A stretch of DNA of 64,000 nucleotides from Rhodobiaceae bacterium (GTDB lineage Bacteria > Pseudomonadota > Alphaproteobacteria > RS24): contig JABJKE010000034.1 of the NCBI GenBank assembly GCA_018660505.1, forward strand, positions 23,114 through 87,113, written 5' to 3'. How positions within the stretch are numbered: the first letter of the stretch is position 1; each line of letters opens with the position of its first letter. Positions 2,634 to 55,446 of the stretch are shown here, piece by piece. Below the pieces are notes generated by a model. It made no database searches. It saw only the letters and a list, made by a program, of their open reading frames with translations, and was not told the DNA's origin. The position numbers and the translations under genes were made by a program.

Positions 2634-4235
2634 ATGTCCTCCGCCTTTTCCAAATTGCAAAATTATATCCTCGGCGTGCCGCTCCACCAGCCGCCGCAAA
2701 GCCTCACAATCTCGCAAGTGCGGATGGATGTTTTGGCCGGCCTAACCGTCGCCTTGGCGCTGGTGCCAGAAGCGGTGGCTTTTGCTTTTGTGGCTGGCGT
2801 CGACCCGCTGGTCGGCCTTTATGCGGCCTTTCTGGTGGGCCTGATAACCGCCGCGATTGGCGGACGTCCCGGTATGATTTCCGGTGCCACGGGCGCGCTG
2901 GCTGTGGTGATGGTGGCTTTGGTGGCGCAACACGGCGTGCAATATTTATTCGCCACTGTGGTGCTGATGGGAATTTTGCAATTACTGGCAGGCGCGCTTC
3001 GTTGGGGCAAATTTATCCGCATGGTGCCGCATCCGGTGATGCTGGGGTTTGTGAATGGCCTCGCCATTGTCATCGGTCTGGCGCAATTAGAGCAGTTTAA
3101 AACCACCAATGAGATGGGCGTCAGCCAATGGATTGGCGGTTTCGAGCTGCTGGCCACAGCCGGTCTGGTGGTGGCGACAATGGCGCTGATTTATGCGACG
3201 CCCAAATTAACCAAACTCATTCCCGCGCCCTTGGCGGCCATTGGCTTGGTCACCGCCGTGGTGCTTGGATTTGATATCCAAGTGCCGCGCGTCGGCGATT
3301 TGGCCAGCCTGTCTGGCGGCCTGCCGAGTTTTGCCATTCCCATGGTGCCGTTCACGCTAGAGACTTTGGCGATTATTTTCCCTTACGCGGTTATTCTGGC
3401 GGCCATTGGGCTGATTGAAAGCCTGCTGACGCTCAACCTCGTGGGCGAGATTACCGAGCAACGCGGTGGCGCGTCGCAAGAATGTATGGCGCAAGGGGCG
3501 GCCAATTTGGCGACTGGCTTTTTTGGCGGCATGGGCGGCTGCGCGATGATTGGCCAATCGATGATCAACGTAAATTCGGGCGGGCGAACGCGTATCGGCG
3601 GCCTTGCGGCGGCTTTGTTTCTCTTGGTGTTTATCCTCTTCGCCTCGGGGCTGATTGAGCAAATCCCGATTGCAGCCCTCGTCGGCGTTATGTTCATGGT
3701 GGTCATTGGCACTTTCGCGTGGAACTCGCTGAAGACGCTTTTCAAAGTGCCGCGCGCCGATGCGCTGGTGATTATCGTGGTGACCATTGTCACTGTGGCA
3801 GAAGATTTAGCCATTGCCGTGGTGGTGGGCGTGATTATGTCGGCTCTGGTTTATGCGTGGAACGCGGCTAAACGCATTCACGCCTCCAAGCGCCCGTCGG
3901 CGCGCGAAAAGGGCGCGATTGTCTATGACATCCAAGGGCCGTTGTTTTTTGGTTCGGTAACTGGCTTTCGGCAATTATTTGATATGGCCGAGGACCCGGA
4001 CACAGTGATTATCGATTTCGCCGCCTCGCGCGTGGTCGACCAATCGGCCTTGCAAGCGATTGAGGATGTGGCGGATAAATATAACGACTTGGGCAAACGC
4101 GTCATGCTGCGGCACTTATCGCGCGATTGCCATCGCCTGCTGAGCAAAGCCGGCCAGCTGATGATAGATAGCGACGACGACCCAGACTACGGCGTGGCAG
4201 TAGATTATGACATCAACCTCGGGGCTTTCCGCTAG
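2634..4235 (+). CDS. SulP family inorganic anion (sulfate) permease with C-terminal STAS domain
   Basis: ORF 2490..4235; likely start ATG 2634 (MSSAFSKLQNY). Multi-TM core with DVLAGLTVALALVPEAVAFAFVAG motif and a soluble C-terminal STAS-like tail (VYDIQGPLFFGS...). Confidence 0.85.
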   Translation: MSSAFSKLQNYILGVPLHQPPQSLTISQVRMDVLAGLTVALALVPEAVAFAFVAGVDPLVGLYAAFLVGLITAAIGGRPGMISGATGALAVVMVALVAQHGVQYLFATVVLMGILQLLAGALRWGKFIRMVPHPVMLGFVNGLAIVIGLAQLEQFKTTNEMGVSQWIGGFELLATAGLVVATMALIYATPKLTKLIPAPLAAIGLVTAVVLGFDIQVPRVGDLASLSGGLPSFAIPMVPFTLETLAIIFPYAVILAAIGLIESLLTLNLVGEITEQRGGASQECMAQGAANLATGFFGGMGGCAMIGQSMINVNSGGRTRIGGLAAALFLLVFILFASGLIEQIPIAALVGVMFMVVIGTFAWNSLKTLFKVPRADALVIIVVTIVTVAEDLAIAVVVGVIMSALVYAWNAAKRIHASKRPSAREKGAIVYDIQGPLFFGSVTGFRQLFDMAEDPDTVIIDFAASRVVDQSALQAIEDVADKYNDLGKRVMLRHLSRDCHRLLSKAGQLMIDSDDDPDYGVAVDYDINLGAFR

Positions 4236-5260: not shown

Positions 5261-6415
5261 CTAAGTTTTTGCGCCCCAAACCTCGCGGTTATCGCGCCGC
5301 TCGACGCGCCGCGTGCTGCGCGCGTGCAGGATGCGCTCTAAGCCCGTCTCGCGCAGCAGAGCCTCAACGCTGTCGCGGTCGCTGTCTTGCAGGGCATCAT
5401 AGGCATCTTGAATGCGTTGCAACATGAATATCCGATAGGGCATCACCATGGCCTTGACGGTTTTCCCGCGCCAAGCGAAGTCGCAAAAGCCAATATGGCG
5501 GGTGGTTTCTTTGCCGCCAATCATATCGCCCTCGCTGATTTGCGTATCTTGCAGGTATTGATTTTGCACGTCGACCATAGCCTCAATCTCTGGCAAATAG
5601 TCGCTGGCCACACGCCGCAAAAGCGTTTTCAGCGTATCTGGAATCTCATCTTCGGCCATCAGGCTTTCGTTGCGGCCAATAAATTCAACCATATCCGGCG
5701 ATGGGTTGCGCATCCGCTCGGTCCAGCGAAACAGCATGGGGGCTTTTTGTTGCATCAAGCGCAGCGGGTGCGGGTCGCGGCCCAAATGGGCGAACAGCGA
5801 AGCGAATAATCCATAATCGCCAATCGTCGGGGCGCCGCCCAACAGATAGGGCTGGGCTGAGAAATGCGCGTCAAATTCGGCCAATATCTCGTGATAGGCG
5901 GCTTCGATATCGGGCATGATTTCTGGCGTCACGCCAAAAGCAACGGCGGCTTTGCGCATACGGCCCGCCGCGTGTAGCGCCATGTCGCGGCGCTCGTCGG
6001 CTGGCACATGCGGCATGGCAAACAGGCCAAATTGCTGCAAAATGAAGTCCAGATTATCTTCGTCGAAATTCCAGCGGTAATGCATGGCAGGTCGCAATAG
6101 GCCTTCGCCGCCGAACATCTCCATAATCAAAGAGCTGACCAGATGACGCGGCGTTTTCGGATAGGCCGAATGTTTGGCCCTGCCGCGGCTTTCAAACCAA
6201 TCGATAATATCTGTGCCATCTTGCACAATCTCGCCATCGGGCGTCGTCATAACCGGAATAATCCAGCGGCCAAGGGCGGGCTGAACGGTGTTTTGAAAAA
6301 CCGGGTCGGCAGGGGAAATATCTTCAAAGGCAATGCCCTGCTTAATCAAATAAGCCCGCGCTTTGCCCGAATAGAGAGACACGCTCCACGAATATAATCT
6401 AAATAAATCGCTCAT
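5261..6415 (-). CDS. glutathione S-transferase-like protein (long form)
   Basis: 384 aa. N-terminal thioredoxin-like GST fold (LYSWSVSLYSGKARAYLIKQGIAFEDI). Function not resolvable further. Confidence 0.55.
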   Translation of the reverse strand: MSDLFRLYSWSVSLYSGKARAYLIKQGIAFEDISPADPVFQNTVQPALGRWIIPVMTTPDGEIVQDGTDIIDWFESRGRAKHSAYPKTPRHLVSSLIMEMFGGEGLLRPAMHYRWNFDEDNLDFILQQFGLFAMPHVPADERRDMALHAAGRMRKAAVAFGVTPEIMPDIEAAYHEILAEFDAHFSAQPYLLGGAPTIGDYGLFASLFAHLGRDPHPLRLMQQKAPMLFRWTERMRNPSPDMVEFIGRNESLMAEDEIPDTLKTLLRRVASDYLPEIEAMVDVQNQYLQDTQISEGDMIGGKETTRHIGFCDFAWRGKTVKAMVMPYRIFMLQRIQDAYDALQDSDRDSVEALLRETGLERILHARSTRRVERRDNREVWGAKT

Positions 6416-6425
6416 GGCGGGCCCC

Positions 6426-7063
6426 TTAGAAGGTCAGGTAAATCAGATGCGATAGAGAGGAAAGGCTAATCAAAACCAAAGCGAGCCAGACCCGAGGCGA
6501 GGGCATAAGGGTGGATAGCGTTTCCACTGGCAAAGCCAAAGTGCTCTCTAAGGCCAATTGCTTATAATTATGCACGTCGTAAAACTTCGGGTTGGTGATG
6601 GCCTTCATCAAATCGCGACGTGAGCGATATCGCATCAGGCCGATAATCTCCCAGCCCGGGTTGGCCTCAACCCCCCCCAATCTTCAATATAGTCGGCCTG
6701 AATGCGCGCGGTATAGGCCGGATAGCCAGCCGCTTTTAAAATCAGGCTGGCGAAAGGGCGGAAGTAGCTTTGCAAAAGCCTGGCCCCCGTGGTGGTTTCT
6801 CCGGTCGCGGGATGTTGAATATCTGCGTCGGGAAATTTTATCAGATTCAGCATGAAAAATTCGCGGCCACTATCGCTTCGCATGAAGTCTTCCAGAACCG
6901 ACATTTTACTCTCGCCTTCCTCCGTTTCTCTGGCTTTTAAAGCGGCCAAGAAGGCATCTATCTCATGCGGCTTTAAGGCGCCGCGCCAATTTTTATGCCA
7001 CGCGAGAAAGCCGATATAGAGAAGCAGGCTCAGCAACCAAAAACTTGCGGGTAATATTTCCAT
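6426..7063 (-). pseudogene. membrane-anchored hypothetical protein split by a frameshift at a G8 (plus-strand C8) tract
   Basis: ORFs 6635..7063 and 6426..6680 are adjacent on the minus strand. They overlap exactly at CCCCCCCC 6671..6678. Adding one G joins ...ADYIEDWGG to VEANPGWEIIGLMRYRSRRDLMKAITNPKF... in one frame. Confidence 0.6.
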
Positions 7064-7292
7064 GGGGGCTCCAAAGACTATTGAAAAAGGACAGGACCTA
7101 GAGCCAAAAAGCTAACAGATTGCCAAAAGGGCGTAAATACAAGCCTTTCATGCGGGCCGCAAATAAAGCTAAGGTGAGCAGGAGCGGCGGTAAAATGCAC
7201 GGCGCTTGGGTTAGCTTCCAGATTTACATGAGATATATTCATGTTATGTTGGAAACCTGACGAGTTAAAAAGTTGGTTTTGTGGAGTTTTAA

Positions 7293-8008: not shown

Positions 8009-9021
8009 TGAACCCATCCGATAAGCCGCCCGTCGCCATTATTGGCACTGGCCTCGCGGGCTTGGCATGCGCCGATGGTCTGGGGCAAAAATTCGACGTG
8101 TCGCTGTTTGATAAATCGCGGGGTCTGTCTGGGCGATTGTCCACGCGGCGTGCGCAGGCGCACACATTCGACCATGGGGCGCAATATTTTCGGGCCGAGA
8201 GCGCCGCCTTTCAGCAATGGCTGAAGCCGTTTGAGGCGGCCGGGCATGTGCGCGACTGGCAACCGCGCCATGTCACGATTGCGGCCGATGGCAGTAAAAC
8301 CACGCGGCCGGACGGAGCCGCCAAGAAAGTCTTCGTTCCTGGCATGAGCGCGATTGGCAAGGTTTTGGTGGCGGGGCGCCCGCAGTGGAACCTCTATCTG
8401 GATTGCGGTATCGATGCGGTAGAGGGCCAAGCCGGAGCTTGGATGTTGCGCGCTGGCGAGAATAGCTTTGGCCCGTTCGAGCACCTTGTCTTCGCCATTC
8501 CGCCCGAGCAGGGGCTGGCGCTTTTGCCTGTCGAGACGCATTTTACTCCGGCTTTGGCCAAGACCCGAATGTTGGGCTGCCATACGTTAATGTTGGGCTA
8601 TGCGGCCCATGAGGCGCCCCAACTCGACTGGGCGTGCGCGCATTTTGAAGATGACGTGTTGGGCTTCGCGGCGGTAAATACCAGCAAGCCAGGGCGAGGC
8701 GAGGGGTTTTCCTTGGTGCTGCAAACGCGCCACGACTGGTCGCAGCGCCATATGGAAGATGATATAGACAGCGTAAGCGCCACCATGAAAGCGCGGTTTC
8801 AAGCCCTGACGGGTGCCTCGACCCAAGCCTCGGGCTATGACCGCATGCATCGATGGCGCTATGTTTCGGCGCAGGTTTTCGCGGCGACGCCAGAGCAGCC
8901 GTATTTGCTGGATACGCAGCTAGGGCTTTGCGCGATTGGCGATTGGTGCCTCGGCTCGAAAGTAGAGGATGCTTTTGTAAGCGGCATGTCGCTGGCGACA
9001 CGCCTTGGTGGTTTGGGGTAA
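8008..9021 (+). CDS. NAD/FAD-dependent oxidoreductase (renalase/amine-oxidase-like)
   Basis: ORF 7993..9021; ATG 8008 gives MNPSDKPPVAIIGTGLAGLACA (dinucleotide-binding GxGxxG). C-terminal GDWCLGSKVEDAFVSG motif. Confidence 0.7.
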   Translation: MNPSDKPPVAIIGTGLAGLACADGLGQKFDVSLFDKSRGLSGRLSTRRAQAHTFDHGAQYFRAESAAFQQWLKPFEAAGHVRDWQPRHVTIAADGSKTTRPDGAAKKVFVPGMSAIGKVLVAGRPQWNLYLDCGIDAVEGQAGAWMLRAGENSFGPFEHLVFAIPPEQGLALLPVETHFTPALAKTRMLGCHTLMLGYAAHEAPQLDWACAHFEDDVLGFAAVNTSKPGRGEGFSLVLQTRHDWSQRHMEDDIDSVSATMKARFQALTGASTQASGYDRMHRWRYVSAQVFAATPEQPYLLDTQLGLCAIGDWCLGSKVEDAFVSGMSLATRLGGLG

Positions 9022-9056
9022 GCTTGTAGCGCGCCTGTTTTTGGAAGGCCCTATTT

Positions 9057-9542
9057 TTGGAAGGAATGGCTGTGTCTATCGAACAAGAATTATCGCCGCC
9101 GGAGCATGCCATCTATATGGCGTCGAGTTTCTACGCCGAGCTTACGGCCAATGCGACGCCAGACGAGGCGCTTATTGACCTCATCGAAAAACTAGAGCCG
9201 CGCGCGCGCGAGGTGCATTTTGTTACCGCCTGCGGGTTAAAAACCAATTTCACGACGGTGCATGAGTTTCCGCTAGAGCTTGCGGAATATGCGGAGACGT
9301 CGATTGGTCATTTAAACGACATCGTCTATTGCCACGCGGCCTTAGTGCAAATCCTGCGGGCGCAAGAGGTTGCCTATCAGTTTTCCGACGAAATAGAACT
9401 GAGCCATAAAGTGGAGCAGGTGGTTGCAGCGATTACGACCGAGCTATTGGCTATTCTGACGCAAGAAGAGAAGGGCGAGGCGATTGGGGAAGAAGCCTTC
9501 GCGACGCGTCTCTTGGCGAAATTACATGCGGAGCCGGGCTAG
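9057..9542 (+). CDS. hypothetical acidic protein
   Basis: 161-aa ORF (TTG start; alternative ATGs at 9066 and 9117). Rich in Glu/Asp. No motif recognised. Confidence 0.4.
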   Translation: MEGMAVSIEQELSPPEHAIYMASSFYAELTANATPDEALIDLIEKLEPRAREVHFVTACGLKTNFTTVHEFPLELAEYAETSIGHLNDIVYCHAALVQILRAQEVAYQFSDEIELSHKVEQVVAAITTELLAILTQEEKGEAIGEEAFATRLLAKLHAEPG

Positions 9543-9554
9543 CCCGCGCATCAG

Positions 9555-9848
9555 CTAGATGTCGCTTCGTATCTCGAATGTGCGGAAGGCGGGTGCGGCG
9601 GCCAGCATTTCACTGACGCTATCGACCAAGCCTGTCTCGACACGCCATCCGATGTAGTTTTGCTGATGCTGTGAACTTTCCCAAATCTCAACCAGCAGAA
9701 GCGTATGGGTCTCGGGTTCATAATAGCTTTTGATATCTTGGCATCCGTCATAAGCACGGGTGTCGGGCAATATTTCTTTCATGGTCTGGATTACTGTTTC
9801 CGCCGCTTCGGGTTTCATTTTAAACTCAGCCGTTACCATTACTGTCAT
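9555..9848 (-). CDS. antibiotic-biosynthesis-monooxygenase (ABM/Dabb) domain protein
   Basis: ORF 9555..9896. ATG at 9848 is preceded by GAGGAG. About 97 aa, MTVMVTAEFKMKPEAAE...LLLVEIWESSQHQQNY pattern typical of ABM ferredoxin-like fold proteins. Confidence 0.55.
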   Translation of the reverse strand: MTVMVTAEFKMKPEAAETVIQTMKEILPDTRAYDGCQDIKSYYEPETHTLLLVEIWESSQHQQNYIGWRVETGLVDSVSEMLAAAPAFRTFEIRSDI

Positions 9849-9983
9849 GACAAACTCCTCTATCAAACTGTCTGATTGATAGTCACGGATAAGCAACCGG
9901 TAATCAATCCCCTATTACGCCGCGTCCGGTTTCTGATGCGGCGAGGGGGGAGGTTGCTTTAAGATTGTTATTTGGCGGAAATG

Positions 9984-10072
9984 AAAAAGGACGTCCCGTA
10001 GGACATCCCCTCAATGGTGTAAGTTCATACTTGTTAACCCTAGCAAGAACCACCTATTCCCAAGTAGTCAAT
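9984..10072 (-). ncRNA. tracrRNA: tracrRNA (predicted)
   Basis: - Minus strand of 10033..10065 reads ACTTGGGAATAGGTGGTTCTTGCTAGGGTTAAC, complementary to the crRNA-sense repeat GTTGCTCTAGCCCCCCCCCTATTCCCAAGT.
- Pairing is a 13-bp perfect block plus an 11-bp block with one bulge.
- Downstream on the minus strand lies the hairpin GGATGTCC-TACG-GGACGTCC followed by TTTTTCATTT (plus 9984..10010), an intrinsic terminator.
- TATAGT -10-like box on the minus strand at 10079..10084.
- Ends are approximate. Confidence 0.75.
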
Positions 10073-10127
10073 AACGTGACTATACTCCAATCTCATTAGA
10101 AAAAAAATAATAAAGTGAGATGCGACA

Positions 10128-13100
10128 ATGAAATACCGTTTGGGAATAGACGTGGGCACCAATTCTTTGGGTTGGGCCGCCTTGGGGCTGGATGACCATG
10201 AGGTGCCAATTTGCCTTGTAGATGCGGGCGCGCGCATTTTCAGCGAGGGTCGAGATGCCAAAACAAAATCAACACTCAAGGCGAGCCGAACAGAGAAGCG
10301 CTCGGCGCGTCGGCGGCGAGACCGGTTTTTGCAGCGTCAAAAGTTTTTGATATCAGAGCTGGTAGAGTTCAAGCTCTTTCCCGCCGACATAGATGAGCGC
10401 AAGCAGCTCGAGGCACAAGACCCTTATGCTTTGCGCCACCGTGGGCTTTTGGAAAAGCTCGACCTCCATCAAATTGGCAGAGCTCTTTTTCACCTCAATC
10501 AAAGGCGCGGATTTAAATCTAATCGCAAAGATAAGAGTGAGGAAAGCACCAGCGGTGTTGTATCCAAATCAGTCCGTGCCTTGTTGCAAGAAATGAAACT
10601 AATGGCTGCGGAGCTTTCCGAAGACGACTTCAAGGCTTTGTCCAAGGAAGAGAACAAAGCCCTTCGCGTTGAAGAAGCCACCAATCGGAAATTGGCAATT
10701 GAAAACCTTGCCGCGCAACCCAATGTGAGCTTTGGCTCTTTCCTGCATCAGCGTCGCCAAAAGGGGCAGACTGTGCGGGCACGTCGGCAAGCGGATGGCA
10801 AGCTTTATGATGTCTACCCGACGAGAGAATTGCTCGAGGATGAGTTTACCAAAATCTTAGCGAAACAGGCCGCGTATTATCCCGATGTGATAACGCCCGA
10901 GGTGAGGGAACGGCTTCGCATTATCATTTTCACCCAAAGAGAGCTGAAGGAACAAAAGCGAGGGCTGTGTAGTTTTTATGCCGAAGAAAAAAGAACCTTC
11001 CGCTGTATGCCGGGTTTCCAGCGTTATCGCATGGTGCAAGACCTGCACGCTTTGGAGTGGGCCGATACAAATGGCAAGCATTGCTTGCGCGACTACCCCG
11101 ATGCCCGCGATGAGATATTGGCCAAGATGGAAGGCGTAACCAGTAAAAAGGGCGAGTTTACGTTTGGCAATATGAAAAAGATTTTGAAAAAGCATGGCCT
11201 AGTGGTTGGAGATACGCGGTTTAATTTTGAAAACCCCAAGCGCAAGGGTTTTGAAGGCAATATGACTTCACGGATTATGCAACATGAGGAACTTGTGGGC
11301 GCGCAATGGTATGATTGGCCGCTAGAAAAACAAGATAGACTGATTGACATTGTTAATGATGGCACTTTGATAGACGAAGAAGTGCTGGGTTATTTGCAAA
11401 ATGAATTCGGGCTATGCGAGTTTAACGCGCAAAACACCATGAACGCCCATCTGTTTGAGGGAACGGCAAGCGTATCGCAAAAAGCCGCCCTGAAACTGTA
11501 TCATCACATGCTGGCGCATAACTGCCTGCAATCGGATGCTGTGCAAGCCTGCGCAGAAGAAGATGAAGCCTTTGCCAATCCGTTTACCAGACAAGGCAGC
11601 GGGGAGTTGCTCGACGCGCTTCCCTATTATGGAGAAGCTTTTCAAGATGGCCGCCATATTATTCCTGGCGACCGCGACCCTAAAGACAGCCATGATGCTG
11701 CGAAATATTATGGCGCCGTGTCTAATCCGACAGTGCATATTGCGCTGAATCAAATCCGTCAGGTGGTCAACGAGCTGATAGAGCGCCTTGGGCATCCCAC
11801 CTCTATCTCTATCGAGCTGGCTCGTAATTTGCCGGAGGGCGAAATAGGCCGCAAGAAGATAGAAAAAGAACAGGCGGATAACCAAGTAGCCAACGGGGAT
11901 ATCGACGAAGAGCTTGAAAAGCTGGGTCAAAACCCTTCGCGCGAAAACCGTTTACGCTTGGCACTTTGGAAGCAATTATCCACGGACCCTAATAGTCGGT
12001 TTTGCCCCTTCACGGGCGAAAAAATAACGATGAGCGACCTATTTAATGGGGCGGCCGAGATTGAACATCTTATTCCGTTCTCACAATCGTTGGACGACAG
12101 CAAAGCCAATAAGGTAATCTGCACCCGCAAAGCCAATCGGGATAAGGGCAACCAAACGCCTTTCCAAGCCTTTGGCCATAGTCCAAATGGCTATGACTGG
12201 CAGGCCATCCAAGAGCGCGCCAATGATTTGCCCCAATCCAAAAGGTGGCGCTTTCAAGAGGATGCGATGGAGATATGGCTTCGCGATCATTCTGATTTCT
12301 CTGGCCGACACCTCAATGACACGCGCTATATTGGCCGCCTAACGCGCGAGTATTTGGAAGCCGTTTGTCCTCATAATAAAATTGATGTTGTGACGGGACG
12401 CCTCACCGCCTTATTGCGCGGCCATTGGGGGCTAAACAGTATCTTGCGTGGCCATAATGCGCCCGAAACCGAAAAGAATAAAAAGCTTAGAGACGACCAC
12501 CGCCATCATGCGATTGATGCCATTGTGATTGGCATGACCACGCGGTCTATGTTGCAGCGCGTGTCCACGGCGGCGGGGCGGGCTGAAGAGCTAGATATCG
12601 CGCGACTATTCGTCACCAATGATGCAGGGCATTCGGCAATTGAGCCTTGGGATGGTTTCCGCGACGAAGTGGGCGAGAAAGTGCGGTCGGTTATTGTTTC
12701 GCACAAAGTGAAGCGCAAAACACGCGGCCATGGCGCGACTGATGGGCAGCTTCATAATGAAACAGCCTATGGCATAGTTTCTGGGCCAGATGAGGAAGGC
12801 GGGTATGAGGTAACGGTGCGCAAACCCGTTGGATATTTTGATACGAAAAAACGCATAGAAATTATTCGGGATGCAACCATTCAAGCGGCGTTTCTAGATG
12901 CATTCGAGGCCGCACCCGATGCTAAAAGTGCCAAACAGGCGGTTTTGCAGCGCGCCAGTGAGATGGGGGTGAAGTCTGTTCGTACGCTAGAAGTGAAAAA
13001 AATTGTTCCCATCGCTGATAAATCTGGCAAGGCATATAAAGCCTATGCCCCAGATGGTCATTGGGGCATGGAAATCTTTGAGTATCCTTCAGGGCATAAG

Positions 13101-13457
13101 AATGCGGGTGAGTGGGAAAGCGTTATCATCACGAGGTTTGAAGCCAACCAACCAAGCTTCAAACCCGGGGAAACCAAGCGTCCCCATCCAGCCGCAAAGC
13201 TTGTCATGCGGTTTCAAATTAACGATTTGGTCGAAGTCACGATTGACGGCGAGCCCACTATCTACCGCGTTCAAAAAATGTCTGCAGGGATGCTTGTCTG
13301 TGCGCCGCCCAATGAAGCCAATGTAGATGCACGGAAAAGAGATAAAGAAGATGCGTTCCAATATAAAGAATTCAACGCCCGTCGCTTGAAAAAACGCAAG
13401 GCGCGCAAACTTCATATCAGCCCGTCCGGCAGAATAAATTATTCTAAAGGTAAATAG
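10128..13457 (+). CDS. cas9: CRISPR-associated endonuclease Cas9, type II-C
   Basis: - 1109 aa.
- RuvC-I: MKYRLGIDVGTNSLGWA.
- Arg-rich bridge helix: RTEKRSARRRRDRFLQRQ.
- RuvC-II: ISIELARNL.
- HNH: EIEHLIPFSQSLDDSKANKVICTRKANRDKGNQTP.
- RuvC-III: DDHRHHAIDAIVIG.
- Followed directly by cas1-cas2, with no csn2 or cas4. Confidence 0.97.
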   Translation: MKYRLGIDVGTNSLGWAALGLDDHEVPICLVDAGARIFSEGRDAKTKSTLKASRTEKRSARRRRDRFLQRQKFLISELVEFKLFPADIDERKQLEAQDPYALRHRGLLEKLDLHQIGRALFHLNQRRGFKSNRKDKSEESTSGVVSKSVRALLQEMKLMAAELSEDDFKALSKEENKALRVEEATNRKLAIENLAAQPNVSFGSFLHQRRQKGQTVRARRQADGKLYDVYPTRELLEDEFTKILAKQAAYYPDVITPEVRERLRIIIFTQRELKEQKRGLCSFYAEEKRTFRCMPGFQRYRMVQDLHALEWADTNGKHCLRDYPDARDEILAKMEGVTSKKGEFTFGNMKKILKKHGLVVGDTRFNFENPKRKGFEGNMTSRIMQHEELVGAQWYDWPLEKQDRLIDIVNDGTLIDEEVLGYLQNEFGLCEFNAQNTMNAHLFEGTASVSQKAALKLYHHMLAHNCLQSDAVQACAEEDEAFANPFTRQGSGELLDALPYYGEAFQDGRHIIPGDRDPKDSHDAAKYYGAVSNPTVHIALNQIRQVVNELIERLGHPTSISIELARNLPEGEIGRKKIEKEQADNQVANGDIDEELEKLGQNPSRENRLRLALWKQLSTDPNSRFCPFTGEKITMSDLFNGAAEIEHLIPFSQSLDDSKANKVICTRKANRDKGNQTPFQAFGHSPNGYDWQAIQERANDLPQSKRWRFQEDAMEIWLRDHSDFSGRHLNDTRYIGRLTREYLEAVCPHNKIDVVTGRLTALLRGHWGLNSILRGHNAPETEKNKKLRDDHRHHAIDAIVIGMTTRSMLQRVSTAAGRAEELDIARLFVTNDAGHSAIEPWDGFRDEVGEKVRSVIVSHKVKRKTRGHGATDGQLHNETAYGIVSGPDEEGGYEVTVRKPVGYFDTKKRIEIIRDATIQAAFLDAFEAAPDAKSAKQAVLQRASEMGVKSVRTLEVKKIVPIADKSGKAYKAYAPDGHWGMEIFEYPSGHKNAGEWESVIITRFEANQPSFKPGETKRPHPAAKLVMRFQINDLVEVTIDGEPTIYRVQKMSAGMLVCAPPNEANVDARKRDKEDAFQYKEFNARRLKKRKARKLHISPSGRINYSKGK

Positions 13458-13478
13458 CCAATCAGGGCGTGTTTAACG

Positions 13479-14387
13479 ATGCCAGAGCAAATTATAGAGA
13501 TAGCCGAATCTGGACGGCGACTTTCCAAGCGCCGAGGGTTTATTGAAATCTACGAAAAAGAAAGCCTATTGGGAAAAGTATCTGTAGATGATGTGAGTTC
13601 TATTATTATCTCGACGCCGGGCTGTTCGGTAACGACAAATTTAATGGATGAATTATCCCTTGCGGGCATACCGCTTGTAATTTGTGGCAAGAACTACCTT
13701 CCGAGTTCGGTGACAATACCGCTGCAAGGGCATCAGAGACAATTTAAAATTATGCAGCAGCAAGGGCAAATAAGTGAGCCAAGGCGCAAGCGAGCTTGGC
13801 AAAAAATTATTCAAGCAAAAATTACCAATCAAATGGAAGTTTTGGAGAGAGCAGGGCAGACAAACCATAAGCTCAAACAATTGGTAAAAAGGGTTGGGTC
13901 GGGGGATCCTGAAAACATAGAGGCGCAGGCTGCCAGAATTTATTGGCAATGTCTTTTTGGCAGTGAGTTCAGAAGAGACAGAAACCAAGTTGGGCTAAAC
14001 GCAGCTTTGAATTATGCCTATACGGTTTTGCGTGCCTGTGTTGCGAGGGGCGTGTGCGCCGCAGGGCTTCACCCGTCTTTTAGTTTGCATCATAAAAGTG
14101 CGCGTAATCCTTTCAACTTGGTGGATGATTTAATTGAGCCGTTACGACCTATGGCCGATTATTTGATTTACTCAAAAGTGGAAGATTTTGTAGGGGAGCT
14201 GAATCCAGACTTGAAGCAACATTTGGCAGGTTTGTTAAGCCTTGAGGTGCAAGCAGAAAATGGTATCGGCTCTCTATCTGTCGCAACGGCAAAAATGTGT
14301 CAGGCTCTCGTCGCTTATTATTTCGGCGACCTAGATGCCGATTTTACCCTGCCAATGCCTAGCCCTTTGGCTTATCATGCATCTTAG
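13479..14387 (+). CDS. cas1: CRISPR-associated endonuclease Cas1 (type II)
   Basis: 302 aa. ENIEAQAARIYW, LNYAYTVLRA, GLHPSFSLHHKSARNPFNLVDDLIEPLRP motifs. Position between cas9 and cas2. Confidence 0.95.
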   Translation: MPEQIIEIAESGRRLSKRRGFIEIYEKESLLGKVSVDDVSSIIISTPGCSVTTNLMDELSLAGIPLVICGKNYLPSSVTIPLQGHQRQFKIMQQQGQISEPRRKRAWQKIIQAKITNQMEVLERAGQTNHKLKQLVKRVGSGDPENIEAQAARIYWQCLFGSEFRRDRNQVGLNAALNYAYTVLRACVARGVCAAGLHPSFSLHHKSARNPFNLVDDLIEPLRPMADYLIYSKVEDFVGELNPDLKQHLAGLLSLEVQAENGIGSLSVATAKMCQALVAYYFGDLDADFTLPMPSPLAYHAS

Positions 14388-14706
14388 TGCCTATAGGATA
14401 ATGTGGCTTTTCGTAATGTTTGACCTTCCGACGGGGTCTAAAAAAGAAAGAAAAGAAGCCAGCGCGTTTAGGAATGGTCTATTGGATCAAGGTTATGAGA
14501 TGTCACAATTTTCAGTTTACTTAAAATATTGCTCTAGCCCTGACCGCGCAGAGGCATTGGAAAAGAGAATAAAGGCAATTTTACCGTCGGGTGGAAAAGT
14601 AGATATTTTAAAAATAACCGATAAACAATTTGGGGCGATGAAACGTTACAAAGCTAAATACGAATCAAAAAATGAAAAAAAACCTAAACAATTACACCTA
14701 TTTTAA
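14377..14706 (+). CDS. cas2: CRISPR-associated endoribonuclease Cas2 (type II)
   Basis: ORF 14335..14706. ATG 14377 gives MHLSAYRIMWLFVMFDLPTGSKKERKEASAFRNGLLDQGYEMSQFSVY, collinear with type II Cas2 N-termini (..MRMILMFDMPTDT..ERK..). Overlaps the cas1 stop by 11 nt. Confidence 0.9.
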   Translation: MHLSAYRIMWLFVMFDLPTGSKKERKEASAFRNGLLDQGYEMSQFSVYLKYCSSPDRAEALEKRIKAILPSGGKVDILKITDKQFGAMKRYKAKYESKNEKKPKQLHLF

Positions 14707-14767
14707 TCAGTTTTGCGAACGCGAAACTATAAACCACACAACAAATTCAATACCTTACATCAACTCT

Positions 14768-14873
14768 AGCTTAGCACTTGGGAATAGGGGGGGGGCTAGA
14801 GCAACGCGGCGGCTGTCGCCTCCTCTGCTGCTTGCAGCTTAGCACTTGGGAATAGGGGGGGGGCTAGAGCAAC
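14768..14873 (-). CRISPR. minimal CRISPR array: 2 identical 38-nt repeats, 1 spacer of 30 nt
   Basis: - Repeat (plus strand) AGCTTAGCACTTGGGAATAGGGGGGGGGCTAGAGCAAC at 14768..14805 and 14836..14873.
- Spacer GCGGCGGCTGTCGCCTCCTCTGCTGCTTGC at 14806..14835.
- Minus-strand reading GTTGCTCTAGCCCCCCCCCTATTCCCAAGTGCTAAGCT has the GTTG...GCTA.. shape of type II-C repeats and matches the tracrRNA anti-repeat, so the crRNA sense is the minus strand. Confidence 0.85.
14836..14845 (-). promoter_or_regulatory. repeat-embedded extended -10-like box (TGnTAAGCT) that could drive the single crRNA
   Basis: The minus strand of the repeat's distal end reads GTGCTAAGCT. Compare the TGnTACAAT box at the same repeat position in Neisseria meningitidis II-C repeats. 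A start about 7 nt downstream would leave about 24 nt of spacer. The same box is in repeat 1 (14768..14777). Confidence 0.4.
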
Positions 14874-14875
14874 CC

Positions 14876-14950
14876 ATGCCTCGTAAGCCGCTTCGCTTTA
14901 ACCAAGCCCAAACAATAATCCATTAGGATTTTCGCCACGCCCTGCTTCCA
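14876..14950 (+). repeat. left copy of an imperfect ~75-80-nt direct repeat (partner 15871..15950)
   Basis: Blocks aligned by eye:
- ATGCCTCGTAAGCC vs ATGCCGTGAAAGCC (11/14)
- AACAATAATCCATT vs AACAAAAATCTATT (12/14)
- GGATTTTCGCCACG vs GGATTTTCGCTACG (13/14)
All are in the same order and orientation. Confidence 0.6.
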
Positions 14951-15357
14951 GCGTTACCGCTATAGCCCTTCATAAAACATCCTGATTTATCGGGCTTCGA
15001 GATGTCCACTGAAACGCGTTTTCGTATCCGTTTATTTCTATTTCGACGACACTTCACTTTTTTGAAATGAAATATCACTTTTCTTCCTAAAACAAATCTG
15101 ATTAGGTTTTACAAGGTGAGGTGGGTTTTTGCGTTTAACTAAGAACCGTTAATGTACCTTGTCTTTAAAAGTGTGCCGTTTTGGCAGTCAACTAAGGAGA
15201 ACATTAGCGGAGCTTCAGGTAAATCCAAATGGTTTTGATTTCAAGGTAGGCAAGTGATGAAAGCTTAGACCGTCCTTGAGCCTTGAAGATCAGTCGCTGA
15301 AAAGGCTTAGGGTTAAAATGGTATGTATTCATTCGTAATTATGTTGAGGAGAGTTAC

Positions 15358-15789
15358 ATGACTTTTGTAGAAACAAATATGTTTTACGCGCAAATCTATC
15401 AATTTATGGGATTAGCTTTTATCGGTTCGTCTTTTTTACTTTGGGTTGGCATGCGGGTTACTTCCGTTTTAGTGGAACGCGAAACGGACAATATCGTTGC
15501 CAAAGTATTGGCGATTATCTTTGGGATAGCGGTTAGCCTGAACTACATCACCATCAGTGCCAATTTGGCGCTCCAATTAGAGAGCCACGCATACTCGCTG
15601 AAGCAGCTAGCTGCGCAGGGCATGGACCTACCAGCTACATCGCTCGGCTTTATTGAAAGAATGGGCGGTGGCAACGCCGTTCCTGAATTTAGCCTGCTGG
15701 GAAATCCGCTGCAAGTGGTGATTGGCCTTATTGCGCTGGCCTTCTGCATCATGCCTCTTTTCGTACCAGTGAAATCTAACAATTCCTGA
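15358..15789 (+). CDS. hypothetical small integral membrane protein (about 3-4 TM)
   Basis: 143-aa ORF with GGAGAG RBS upstream of ATG 15358. Hydrophobic segments (FMGLAFIGSSFLLWVGM, VLAIIFGIAVSLNYI, VVIGLIALAFCIMPLFV). Followed by an intrinsic terminator. No family recognised. Confidence 0.55.
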   Translation: MTFVETNMFYAQIYQFMGLAFIGSSFLLWVGMRVTSVLVERETDNIVAKVLAIIFGIAVSLNYITISANLALQLESHAYSLKQLAAQGMDLPATSLGFIERMGGGNAVPEFSLLGNPLQVVIGLIALAFCIMPLFVPVKSNNS

Positions 15790-15812
15790 TTTTTGAGAGT
15801 CATACAAAACGA

Positions 15813-15841
15813 AAAACGCGGCCGAGAGGTCGCGTTTTTTT
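15813..15841 (+). terminator. intrinsic terminator after the membrane-protein ORF
   Basis: AAAACGCGGCC-GAGA-GGTCGCGTTTTTTTT: GC-rich 7-bp stem (one G:U) plus a T-run. Confidence 0.7.
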
Positions 15842-15870
15842 GTTGGAAAGTTTATTTCTTCATATCGATA

Positions 15871-15950
15871 ATGCCGTGAAAGCCAAGGGGCTATGGGAAG
15901 CTAACCCTAACAAAAATCTATTTTGGATTTTCGCTACGGCCGACTTCGGG
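15871..15950 (+). repeat. right copy of the imperfect direct repeat (partner 14876..14950)
   Basis: See left copy. The two copies bracket about 1 kb of AT-rich DNA containing ORF 15358..15789 and its terminator. Confidence 0.6.
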
Positions 15951-16041
15951 GCTGTCGCCCCTACGCTGGCACAGACAAGAAACCCTTGCCAACTTGTTGG
16001 CTTAGACTAAAAGCACTTGGCAGTTTACTGCCTTAGTGCGC

Positions 16042-16129
16042 CTTGTCCCTTCGGTGGTGCTTTGTCCCTTCGGAGGCGGGCTAAAGTCAGCTGAGCTGCC
16101 AAGCCCTTCTAGCGCCAAGCCCTTTTAGT
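16042..16129 (+). repeat. two short tandem duplications immediately next to the tRNA-Ser 3' end
   Basis: TTGTCCCTTCGG occurs at 16043..16054 and 16062..16073 (period 19). GCCAAGCCCTT occurs at 16098..16108 and 16114..16124 (period 16). The second pair ends 2 nt before the tRNA. Confidence 0.7.
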
Positions 16130-16130
16130 G

Positions 16131-16221
16131 TGGCGGAGAGGAAGGGATTCGAACCCTCGATACGGGATTACCGCATACTCCCTTAGCAGGGGAGCGCCTT
16201 CAGCCACTCGGCCACCTCTCC
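16131..16221 (-). tRNA. tRNA-Ser (anticodon GCU)
   Basis: Minus strand reads GGAGAGGTGGCCGAGTGGCTGAAGGCGCTCCCCTGCTAAGGGAGTATGCGGTAATCCCGTATCGAGGGTTCGAATCCCTTCCTCTCCGCCA. 7-bp acceptor stem, anticodon loop CUGCUAA, long variable arm, TTCGAATC T-loop, encoded CCA. Confidence 0.93.
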
Positions 16222-16395
16222 ACCGCCGTTGATAGCGAAGGGCAACGAGCTTTTCAAGCGGAATTGACCCCCAATCACAGATTTATCGCAAAAAACCCAT
16301 GCCATTTGCCCACGCTCGCCACCCCTCGCAGCCAAGCGCTCCATTGGGCTCGCGCTAAAGCCCCCAGCCAGCCGATAGAGCCCGCGGCTTCGGGG

Positions 16396-17145
16396 TTAAA
16401 AATCTTCCTTATAGGGGCGAATATCCAGCTCTTGCGTCCACGCCGTCTTGTGCTGGTCGTGCATGGCAAAATAAGCCTGCGCAATGGCGCTAATGTTCAA
16501 CCCACCTTCCGCGCCCTTGGCGTCCAGATATTCGGCGAACTGCGAGCGCACTTTCTCGCCCTCAATCATCCCATCAATCACCACATGGCCCACATGAATG
16601 CCTTGCTTGCCATATTCGCGCGCAATCGATTGCACCATCATCCGCAAAGCGCTTTTGCCAGCCGCGAAAGCCGAAAAGCCCGCTTTGCCCCGCAAAGATC
16701 CGCTGGCCCCGGTAAACAATAGGCTTTGCTTGGGTGCCGCATCTTGCTGTTTTAACATCAACCGCAGCATCGCTTGCGCGGTCACGAAACCGCCGAAGCA
16801 AATCACCCGCCACATATCCTCAAACACTTCCGGGGTGACATCTAAAAAAGCCTCCGGCCGATTGTTGCCCGCGTTATAAATCGCCAGCTCCAGCGGACGG
16901 GCATCGGCTTCCACGATGGCCAGCGCCGCTTCCACTTGTTTGGGCTGGGTTACATCTGCCAATAAAGCCGTGGCGCTGCCCCCGGCGGCCTCGATGGTTT
17001 CGACAATCGCGTCTATTTTCTCTTGCGTTCGCCCGTTCACAAAAACATGCAGGCCGCGTGCGCTGGCTTGCACGCATAGCTCTGCGCCCACCCCTTGGCG
17101 GGGGCCCACACCGAAAATAATAGCACTGCTGGTTGGTTTGGACAT
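16396..17145 (-). CDS. short-chain dehydrogenase/reductase (SDR) family protein, atypical active site
   Basis: 249 aa. N-terminal IIFGVGPRQGVG nucleotide-binding region and NAG motif. The expected YxxxK reads FAAGK. Confidence 0.7.
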   Translation of the reverse strand: MSKPTSSAIIFGVGPRQGVGAELCVQASARGLHVFVNGRTQEKIDAIVETIEAAGGSATALLADVTQPKQVEAALAIVEADARPLELAIYNAGNNRPEAFLDVTPEVFEDMWRVICFGGFVTAQAMLRLMLKQQDAAPKQSLLFTGASGSLRGKAGFSAFAAGKSALRMMVQSIAREYGKQGIHVGHVVIDGMIEGEKVRSQFAEYLDAKGAEGGLNISAIAQAYFAMHDQHKTAWTQELDIRPYKEDF

Positions 17146-55246: not shown

Positions 55247-55377
55247 AAGCCCGGGGCCTTCTATCGAAGGCCCCGGGTTTTTTTATGGGCACCATGCGGC
55301 CTTCTATCGAAAGCCCCGGGTTTTTGATGGGCACCACGCGGCCTTCTATCGAAAGCCCCGGGTTTTTTATGGGCGAC
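55247..55377 (+). repeat. three tandem copies (about 42-45 nt) of a terminator-like hairpin unit
   Basis: Units ..CCCGGGGCCTTCTATCGAAGGCCCCGGGTTTTTTTATGGGCACC / ATGCGGCCTTCTATCGAAAGCCCCGGGTTTTTGATGGGCACC / ACGCGGCCTTCTATCGAAAGCCCCGGGTTTTTTATGGGCGAC. Confidence 0.85.
55250..55284 (+). terminator. strong intrinsic terminator of hppA (first repeat unit)
   Basis: Perfect 12-bp stem CCCGGGGCCTTC / GAAGGCCCCGGG, loop TATC, followed by T7. Confidence 0.85.
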
Positions 55378-55446
55378 ACGGGCCTCTTTGCATTAACGAA
55401 TCCTTTATGCTTGGATGCGATAAATAATAAAAACAAGGAGCGCCCA

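Follow-up and report, generated by a model that had tools for sequence, protein, structure and literature searches.

Every Cas9 system is expected to have a tracrRNA (trans-activating CRISPR RNA; CRISPR, clustered regularly interspaced short palindromic repeats), and the question raised by the cas9 locus analyzed here is where that RNA is encoded. The locus lies in a 64,000-nt stretch of DNA (the window) from a Rhodobiaceae bacterium (assembly GCA_018660505.1, contig JABJKE010000034.1, positions 23,114 to 87,113), in which a sequence-only reading had placed a tracrRNA gene of about 90 nt directly upstream of cas9 and divergent from it. This placement was supported by a covariance model built from relatives, by covariation, by a strand test, by the promoter hexamers of relatives, and by metatranscriptome contigs. 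The minus strand of positions 9984 to 10072 encodes, with a probability of roughly 0.93, the tracrRNA of a type II-C CRISPR-Cas9 locus. Judged by its sequence, the element has the parts that define a tracrRNA, namely a place in a cas9 locus, an anti-repeat to the repeat of the same locus, a structured 3' part, and a terminator. Its expression as a separate small RNA and its co-processing with pre-crRNA by RNase III are suggested.

The CRISPR RNAs (crRNAs) that would pair with the element come from a mini CRISPR array at 14768 to 14873, read on the minus strand in the crRNA sense and consisting of two identical 38-nt repeats (14768 to 14805 and 14836 to 14873, minus-strand sequence GTTGCTCTAGCCCCCCCCCTATTCCCAAGTGCTAAGCT) and one 30-nt spacer (14806 to 14835). 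The anti-repeat was found at 10033 to 10065 on the minus strand (plus-strand reading GTTAACCCTAGCAAGAACCACCTATTCCCAAGT), where the sequence-only reading had located it, and the 13-mer CCTATTCCCAAGT proved to be the sole 13-mer common to the repeat and the rest of the window. RNAduplex and two-strand cofolding both reproduced the duplex that had been modelled, with a dimer energy of repeat and tracrRNA of -57.5 kcal/mol. Repeat nt 1 to 11 pair with GCUAGGGUUAAC, giving an 11-bp lower stem that includes G·U pairs and from which one U bulges out (anti-repeat 10033 to 10044), followed by an internal loop that faces the C-run of the repeat (10045 to 10049), two C:G pairs (10050 to 10051), a C·U mismatch, and a block of 13 to 14 bp, in which 10053 to 10065 pair with repeat nt 18 to 30 over 13 bp. 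A 12-mer match to the repeat inside cas2 (TTGCTCTAGCCC, at 14529) was rejected; it could not be extended, and about 0.2 such matches are expected by chance, by estimate.

Relatives of the window Cas9 were found by protein search at 99%, 66%, 62%, and lower identity, the closest named one being that of Candidatus Micropelagos thuwalensis, and a literature search for the name "Micropelagos thuwalensis" found it in no paper. The contigs of three relatives carry a conserved block upstream of cas9, at a position identical to that of the window element, with the same terminator, a ATCAATGGTG…TTGTTAACCCTAGC core, and a ACCTATTCCCAA block in common. A locus search with a single Cas9 protein found nothing, and a genome scan with a Cas9 alignment recovered 80 further loci, mostly in marine or sponge-associated metagenome-assembled genomes of Parvibaculaceae, Nitrospirales, Arenicellales, Poriferihabitaceae, and others. 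With the window element as nhmmer query, homologues were detected beside cas9 in 45 other loci (E < 0.01), almost all of them 50 to 250 nt upstream of cas9 and on the opposite strand; the module was inverted in six loci, lay past the array in one, and was present in two copies in one. Upstream placement of the anti-repeat prevails in II-A and II-C loci, with divergent upstream placement the commonest (PMC3737331). In its GTTG sense, the repeat runs counter to cas9 here and in nearly all related loci. For the conserved family motif (G)AUUAACAAG, the literature matches among those listed were unrelated and evidently due to chance.

Covariation was analyzed in an alignment of 41 loci (A2), in which the own repeat of each locus, GAAA, and the tracrRNA were joined, on a structure drawn from the window duplex. 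Standard pairs filled 91.9% of 1837 cells, versus 38 to 45% when the partners were slid by 1 to 3 columns. Both-sided changes were seen in 35 of the 45 pairs, and none of 500 shuffles matched any observed measure. Within the repeat:anti-repeat duplex, 23 of 31 pairs were compensatory: in the lower stem, 95% of cells were paired and 5 of 11 pairs covaried, and in the upper stem, 85% were paired and 18 of 20 pairs covaried. In locus L014, for example, CCUAAACCC pairs with GGGUUUAGG, and in locus L016, CUAAUUGCUGAA pairs with UUCAGCAAUUAG. The two 3' hairpins covaried at 12 of 14 pairs. The paired-cell percentages are biased toward the structure, since it was derived from one of the aligned sequences; the counts of compensatory changes are free of this bias.

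A covariance model, R1, was built from 45 relatives with the window and the near-identical locus L003 excluded. It matched the window end to end at 9980 to 10069 on the minus strand (82.4 bits, E ~2e-18); the only other match in the window had E = 0.17 and lay mainly over a hairpin and T-run. Among the 83 related cas9 loci, R1 matched 69 at E < 1e-3, nearly always just upstream of cas9 and divergent from it, including loci with a Cas9 only 35 to 40% identical.

Several relatives showed variant arrangements. In the inverted loci, including L058, L017, L021, L018, and L046 (at about 3300 to 3405, plus strand), the tracrRNA module is co-directional with cas9, and these five carry an extra mini-hairpin, GCUUCGGC (GCUUAGGC in L046), on the internal-loop side of the anti-repeat. 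Two tandem, near-identical tracrRNA copies (1609 to 1698 and 1858 to 1947; 103 and 104 bits) stand upstream of one cas9 in locus L013. In the locus of Ca. Micropelagos thuwalensis (L002), a 13-repeat array at 6330 to 7170 follows cas9 directly, no cas1 or cas2 was called between or beyond cas9 and the array, and a phage-integrase gene lies about 1.7 kb past the array.

The strand of the functional RNA was read from the wobble pairs of the 41 loci. G·U cells numbered 127 overall, versus 28 A·C cells, and by helix, the lower stem had 55 G·U to 4 A·C cells, stem-loop 1 had 10 to 0, and the terminator had 34 to 0 (99 to 4 for these three together). On the opposite strand, the almost invariant G4·U wobble would become a mismatch of C and A. 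It follows that the minus strand gives the functional RNA, and the crRNA sense is the one that begins with GTTG.

The 3' part carries a nexus-like stem-loop 1 at 10019 to 10030 on the minus strand, formed by G10030-U-A and U-A-C10019 around the loop UGAACU. The sequence-only reading had drawn a hairpin AAGU-AUGA-ACUU here; it can be drawn, but in the family it is 69.9% paired with zero pairs covarying, and this register was rejected in favor of the GUA/UAC helix two positions away, which is paired in 98.8% of cells, covaries at 3 of 4 pairs, and is selected by the minimum free energy cofold of the window itself. Relatives show U-A to C-G and A-U to G-C exchanges in this helix and add a fourth A-U pair with a GAAU loop. 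The conserved single-stranded linker that follows (8 nt, 10011 to 10018, minus strand, ACCAUUGA) has the family consensus AACAUUC/G, with columns nearly invariant in alignments A2 and A3. The intrinsic terminator that had been described as GGAUGUCC-UACG-GGACGUCC with a U-run is present at 9984 to 10010 on the minus strand: an 8-bp core GGAUGUCC/GGACGUCC at 10008 to 9989 is extended by two further G·U pairs, capped by a UACG (UNCG-type) tetraloop, and followed by a U5 run at 9988 to 9984. Its fold had z = -3.8, and in the family, 98.5% of its cells were paired and 9 of 10 pairs covaried.

For the promoter, the TATAGT box noted earlier is at 10084 to 10079 on the minus strand, a -10-like element by consensus match, and the relatives have -10-like hexamers in the equivalent place: their TAnnnT hexamers cluster 11 to 19 nt upstream of the aligned tracrRNA start, many with a TTGACA-like -35 about 17 nt further upstream. 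The position of TATAGT, read together with these consensus matches, would put the start near 10072, 56 nt upstream of the cas9 ATG (10128), and the 3' end would fall within the U-run at 9984 to 9988, giving a primary RNA of about 89 nt (9984 to 10072, minus strand), in keeping with the extent of the R1 match. TATAGT overlaps TATACT at 10081 to 10086 on the plus strand, part of the sole promoter-like match that a pattern scan returned at the element (TTCCCA-18-TATACT, 10057 to 10086), and this TATACT may serve cas9.

DNA of the window turned up in more than 20 metagenome runs from seawater or other marine sources, and three metatranscriptome runs (X25, X26, and X27) contained part of it. Their contigs cover 9553 to 10053 in X25, 9491 to 10053 in X26, and 9892 to 10054 in X27, and no contigs of these runs lie over 10096 to 11000. 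In the X25 contig, position 10053 gives way to the read-1 adapter (AGATCGGAAGAGCACACGTCTGA), which marks a real fragment end there. The adapter orientation was calibrated in the same run on the strongly expressed plus-strand mRNA of the open reading frame (ORF) at 15358 to 15789, where the read-1 adapter stands at the 5' end (15133) and the read-2 adapter on the 3' side (15751); judged by this, a minus-strand RNA has its 5' end at 10053. A single RNA end, 10053/10054, is seen in the metatranscriptome contigs; it falls within the anti-repeat, where the 13-bp block borders the loop, and is some 19 nt downstream from where the start is predicted. No promoter-like hexamer was found at the proper distance upstream of this end, and the upper stem must be transcribed since it covaries with the repeat. 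Most simply, RNase III cut the crRNA:tracrRNA duplex, and 10053/10054 is probably the 5' end that this left on the tracrRNA, with 21 to 22 nt of anti-repeat in an RNA of about 70 nt. No crRNA-sized species was seen at the array in the metatranscriptome contigs.

The proposed course of events is as follows. A sigma-70-type promoter with its -10 at 10084 to 10079 would start transcription near 10072, and the anti-repeat of 33 nt in the 5' part (10065 to 10033) would pair with the repeat part of the minus-strand crRNAs in a duplex with an 11-bp lower stem, an internal loop, and about 16 bp of upper stem. It is in the upper stem that cutting by RNase III would be expected, a step with which the contig ends at 10053/10054 agree and which would leave the shortened anti-repeat described above. 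By analogy with solved Cas9-single guide RNA (sgRNA) complexes, the 3' part (AA, the stem-loop of 3 to 4 bp at 10030 to 10019, the linker, and the UNCG-capped terminator with its U-run at 10010 to 9984) would serve as the Cas9-binding handle, and the crRNA:tracrRNA pair would guide Cas9 to cut DNA.

Several observations weigh against this assignment. The G-rich site at 16300 to 16344 on the minus strand was slightly better than the candidate in a scan of duplex energy (-39.6 versus -38.9). Energy alone is not decisive, since the C9 tract of the repeat pairs with any G-rich stretch; the site was rejected as an anti-repeat for its irregular pairing and the absence of a match by R1. As to a better anti-repeat within the window, the unique 13-mer and R1 single out the site at 10033 to 10065, whereas the energy ranking does not. 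The pattern scan for promoters and terminators missed the terminator hairpin, presumably by a greedy G·U extension that consumed part of the U-run. No Rfam match was found in 9900 to 10100 (cmscan of 9000 to 16500, release 15, E up to 10), as is expected from the known diversity of tracrRNA sequences, which are too diverse for cross-clade models (PMC3737331). The RNA evidence consists of assembled contigs from mixed communities, with no contig over the primary 5' part at 10055 to 10072. The contigs also pass the terminator into the gene of an ABM-domain monooxygenase (ORF 9555 to 9896, minus strand; contigs 9491/9553 to 10053), which leaves a discrete small RNA and efficient termination unsupported by them. 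The repeat itself has a C·U mismatch to the tracrRNA and a loop 2 nt longer than in relatives, and, together with an array of one spacer, the degraded pairing means that activity in this strain is not assured.

A rival explanation is that the gene is genuine by descent and the system is decaying in this strain, so that the RNA no longer supports immunity; we consider this improbable. The repeat has 38 nt, versus 32 to 37 nt, mostly 36 nt, for the repeats detected in 72 related loci, and it has mutated to a C9 homopolymer (G9 on the plus strand) in both copies, at 14786 to 14794 and 14854 to 14862. The C9 tract represents a gain of 2 nt, specific to this lineage, in a 36-nt repeat, and relatives that were aligned with their tracrRNA have mixed sequence at this site, for example CCCTACC or CACCACC. 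Nearly all relatives have A-U or G-C in the column that faces U10052 (column 17-59), where the window has C·U, and a CCACC repeat would pair better in the cofold (-60.9 versus -57.5 kcal/mol). The GGUGG of the tracrRNA still fits the ancestral CCACC, and the homopolymer therefore looks recent and uncompensated. In one metagenome run (X1), a contig skips exactly one repeat-spacer unit (14767 to 14836), which gives a spacerless array of one repeat. On the other side, cas9, cas1, and cas2 each have an intact ORF, family scores are strong, and the catalytic columns are conserved. The family model gives the tracrRNA 82 bits. The part in contact with Cas9 once processing is done (PMC12080349) is the lower stem, which is intact, and RNA ends lie at the expected processing site. 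The metagenome depth of the repeat is about 3.5 times that of the flank and that of the window spacer about 15 to 25% of it; array content therefore differs between cells of the population, as expected of an active system.

The length-variable C-run is the most unusual by-product of the analysis. Forms shortened by one and by two bases (C8 and C7), each at about 20% of metagenome contig depth, were present in both repeats. There is a slim chance that the run is a phase-variable CRISPR repeat, prone to slippage that would alter the size of the internal loop and so tune or switch processing and Cas9 loading.

Less credible still is the explanation that the minus-strand RNA is a long 5' leader of the ABM-domain monooxygenase gene and that its likeness to the repeat has no function. 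The contigs run unbroken from 10053 through the hairpin into this gene, but tblastn found the ABM gene in none of the stretches fetched for the relatives, and on this ground the hypothesis was rejected. The element travels with cas9 and stands beside it in 69 of 83 loci. Unlike a leader RNA, its 5' part covaries with the own repeat of each locus, and the hairpin with the U-run is a covarying terminator. The ABM gene may be expressed in part by read-through from the tracrRNA promoter. Finally, it is very improbable that the plus strand is the functional one, with repeat-like sequence from the promoter or leader of cas9 transcribed together with this gene and pairing with a plus-strand pre-crRNA: Watson-Crick complementarity is strand-symmetric, the promoter-like match on that strand overlaps the element, and the element is co-directional with cas9 in six relatives, but on the plus strand the G4·U wobble and the G·U pairs of the terminator would become mismatches, the U-run terminator and -10 boxes suit the minus strand only, the minus strand carries the repeat in its GTTG sense along with its extended -10-like motif, the adapter orientation points to a minus-strand RNA, and relatives with a co-directional element have the module inverted as a whole, with the RNA strand unchanged.

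The tracrRNA gene is part of a type II-C CRISPR-Cas9 locus, made up of cas9, cas1, and cas2 without csn2 or cas4, neither of which was found at the locus by family profile matches. The product of cas9 (10128 to 13457, plus strand) has 1109 aa and matches TIGR01865 (E = 6e-178) and the Pfam families HNH_4 and RuvC_III, and its RuvC and HNH motifs fall in conserved columns of the alignment, among them D8, E563, H647, N670, H791, and D797; these residues we take to be the RuvC/HNH catalytic positions. The nearest solved structures by sequence match to PDB, in a table that gives no organism names, were Cas9 chains (E ~1e-51 to 1e-55), and the matches are weak and limited to the nuclease core, best over about query residues 530 to 850; one of them, 6JDQ, is presumably N. 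meningitidis Cas9. Downstream on the plus strand are cas1 of type II, NMENI subtype (13479 to 14387; TIGR03639, E = 4.5e-75), and cas2 (14416 to 14706; TIGR01573, E = 1.2e-19), whose ORF is open from 14335 and whose start was taken from the gene call on the near-identical contig L003. The array begins 61 nt past the end of cas2, and, as it is read opposite to the cas genes and these are cas9-cas1-cas2 only, the layout is that of type II-C. The II-C-like architecture proposed earlier is supported. Opening with GTTG, the minus-strand repeat is typical of type II repeats, and an extended -10-like motif, TGCTAAGCT, lies at its 3' end; in the family, 33 of 42 repeats have TGnTAnnnT at this end. Promoters inside repeats have been described for II-C systems (PMC12080349), and TGCTAAGCT and the family motif would be compatible with such repeat-borne promoters. 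The PAM-proximal (protospacer adjacent motif) 20-mer of the spacer had no exact match in viral contigs.

The locus resembles the N. meningitidis-type II-C tracrRNA/crRNA system (Chylinski et al. 2013, PMC3737331; reportedly also Zhang et al. 2013) in its minimal cas9-cas1-cas2 operon, in an array with its crRNA sense opposite to the cas genes, in 36-nt repeats that open with GTTG and end in the extended -10-like TGnTAnnnT, and in a tracrRNA composed of an anti-repeat, AAG and a stem-loop, a linker, and a terminator hairpin. Compared by description, the tracrRNA of the window is shorter (about 89 nt for the primary RNA versus about 110 nt; PMC3737331), and its stem-loop 1 has only 3 to 4 bp. 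An array antisense to the cas genes has been demonstrated by experiment in N. meningitidis and C. jejuni (PMC3737331). The C. jejuni system (Dugar et al. 2013, as cited in PMC12080349) is likewise of type II-C; its repeats are each equipped with a promoter, the duplex of repeat and anti-repeat is cut by RNase III, and the first ~15 nt of the processed repeat interact with Cas9 (PMC12080349). It differs from the window in having a smaller Cas9 and a different scaffold. In C. jejuni, the tracrRNA is encoded between cas2 and the array, not upstream of cas9. In S. pyogenes, co-processing by RNase III leaves an anti-repeat of about 22 nt, and the end at 10053/10054 would leave 21 to 22 nt; processing in the window would resemble both the 89-to-75 nt step of the S. 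pyogenes tracrRNA and the trimming of about 16 nt in N. meningitidis. The S. pyogenes system shares with the window a divergent tracrRNA gene upstream of cas9 (Deltcheva et al. 2011). In contrast to the window, it is a type II-A system that has csn2, its array points the same way as the cas genes, its crRNAs need processing to mature, and its tracrRNA is unrelated in sequence.

Other features were observed around the array and further along the window. Just past the array, a 44-nt stretch (14948 to 14991) reached 5 to 12 times the flank depth in four metagenome runs, with contigs that lead into unrelated sequence on both sides; it looks multi-copy and is present as a single copy in the window. 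A pair of loosely similar 26-mers lies at 14923 to 14948 and 15922 to 15947. The plus-strand mRNA at 15133 to 15802 reached a contig depth of up to about 290, versus about 10 at the tracrRNA region, and has a sharp 5' end at 15133 and a 225-nt leader before the ORF at 15358 to 15789 (143 aa); the product, hydrophobic by eye, had no Pfam or NCBIfam match, and the leader had no Rfam match. About 1.3 kb past the array, a candidate tRNA of serine type with a long variable arm (16134 to 16221, minus strand; 58.9 bits with the Rfam tRNA model) has the anticodon GCU (serine) as read from the alignment, and many RNA contigs of other organisms stack there. At 55255 to 55385, a 42-nt unit is repeated in tandem (3.1 copies, 91% matches).

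The tracrRNA found here is an expected part of a II-C locus and brings no new biology; it completes the annotation of this locus in an abundant free-living marine bacterium. Its sequence offers a candidate sgRNA scaffold, which would consist of the lower stem, a loop, the 3- to 4-bp stem-loop, the 8-nt linker, and the UNCG-capped terminator. Model R1 can be used to annotate the tracrRNA across the whole clade of these Cas9 proteins, which spans loci of Alpha- and Gammaproteobacteria, Nitrospirales, and sponge-symbiont genomes.

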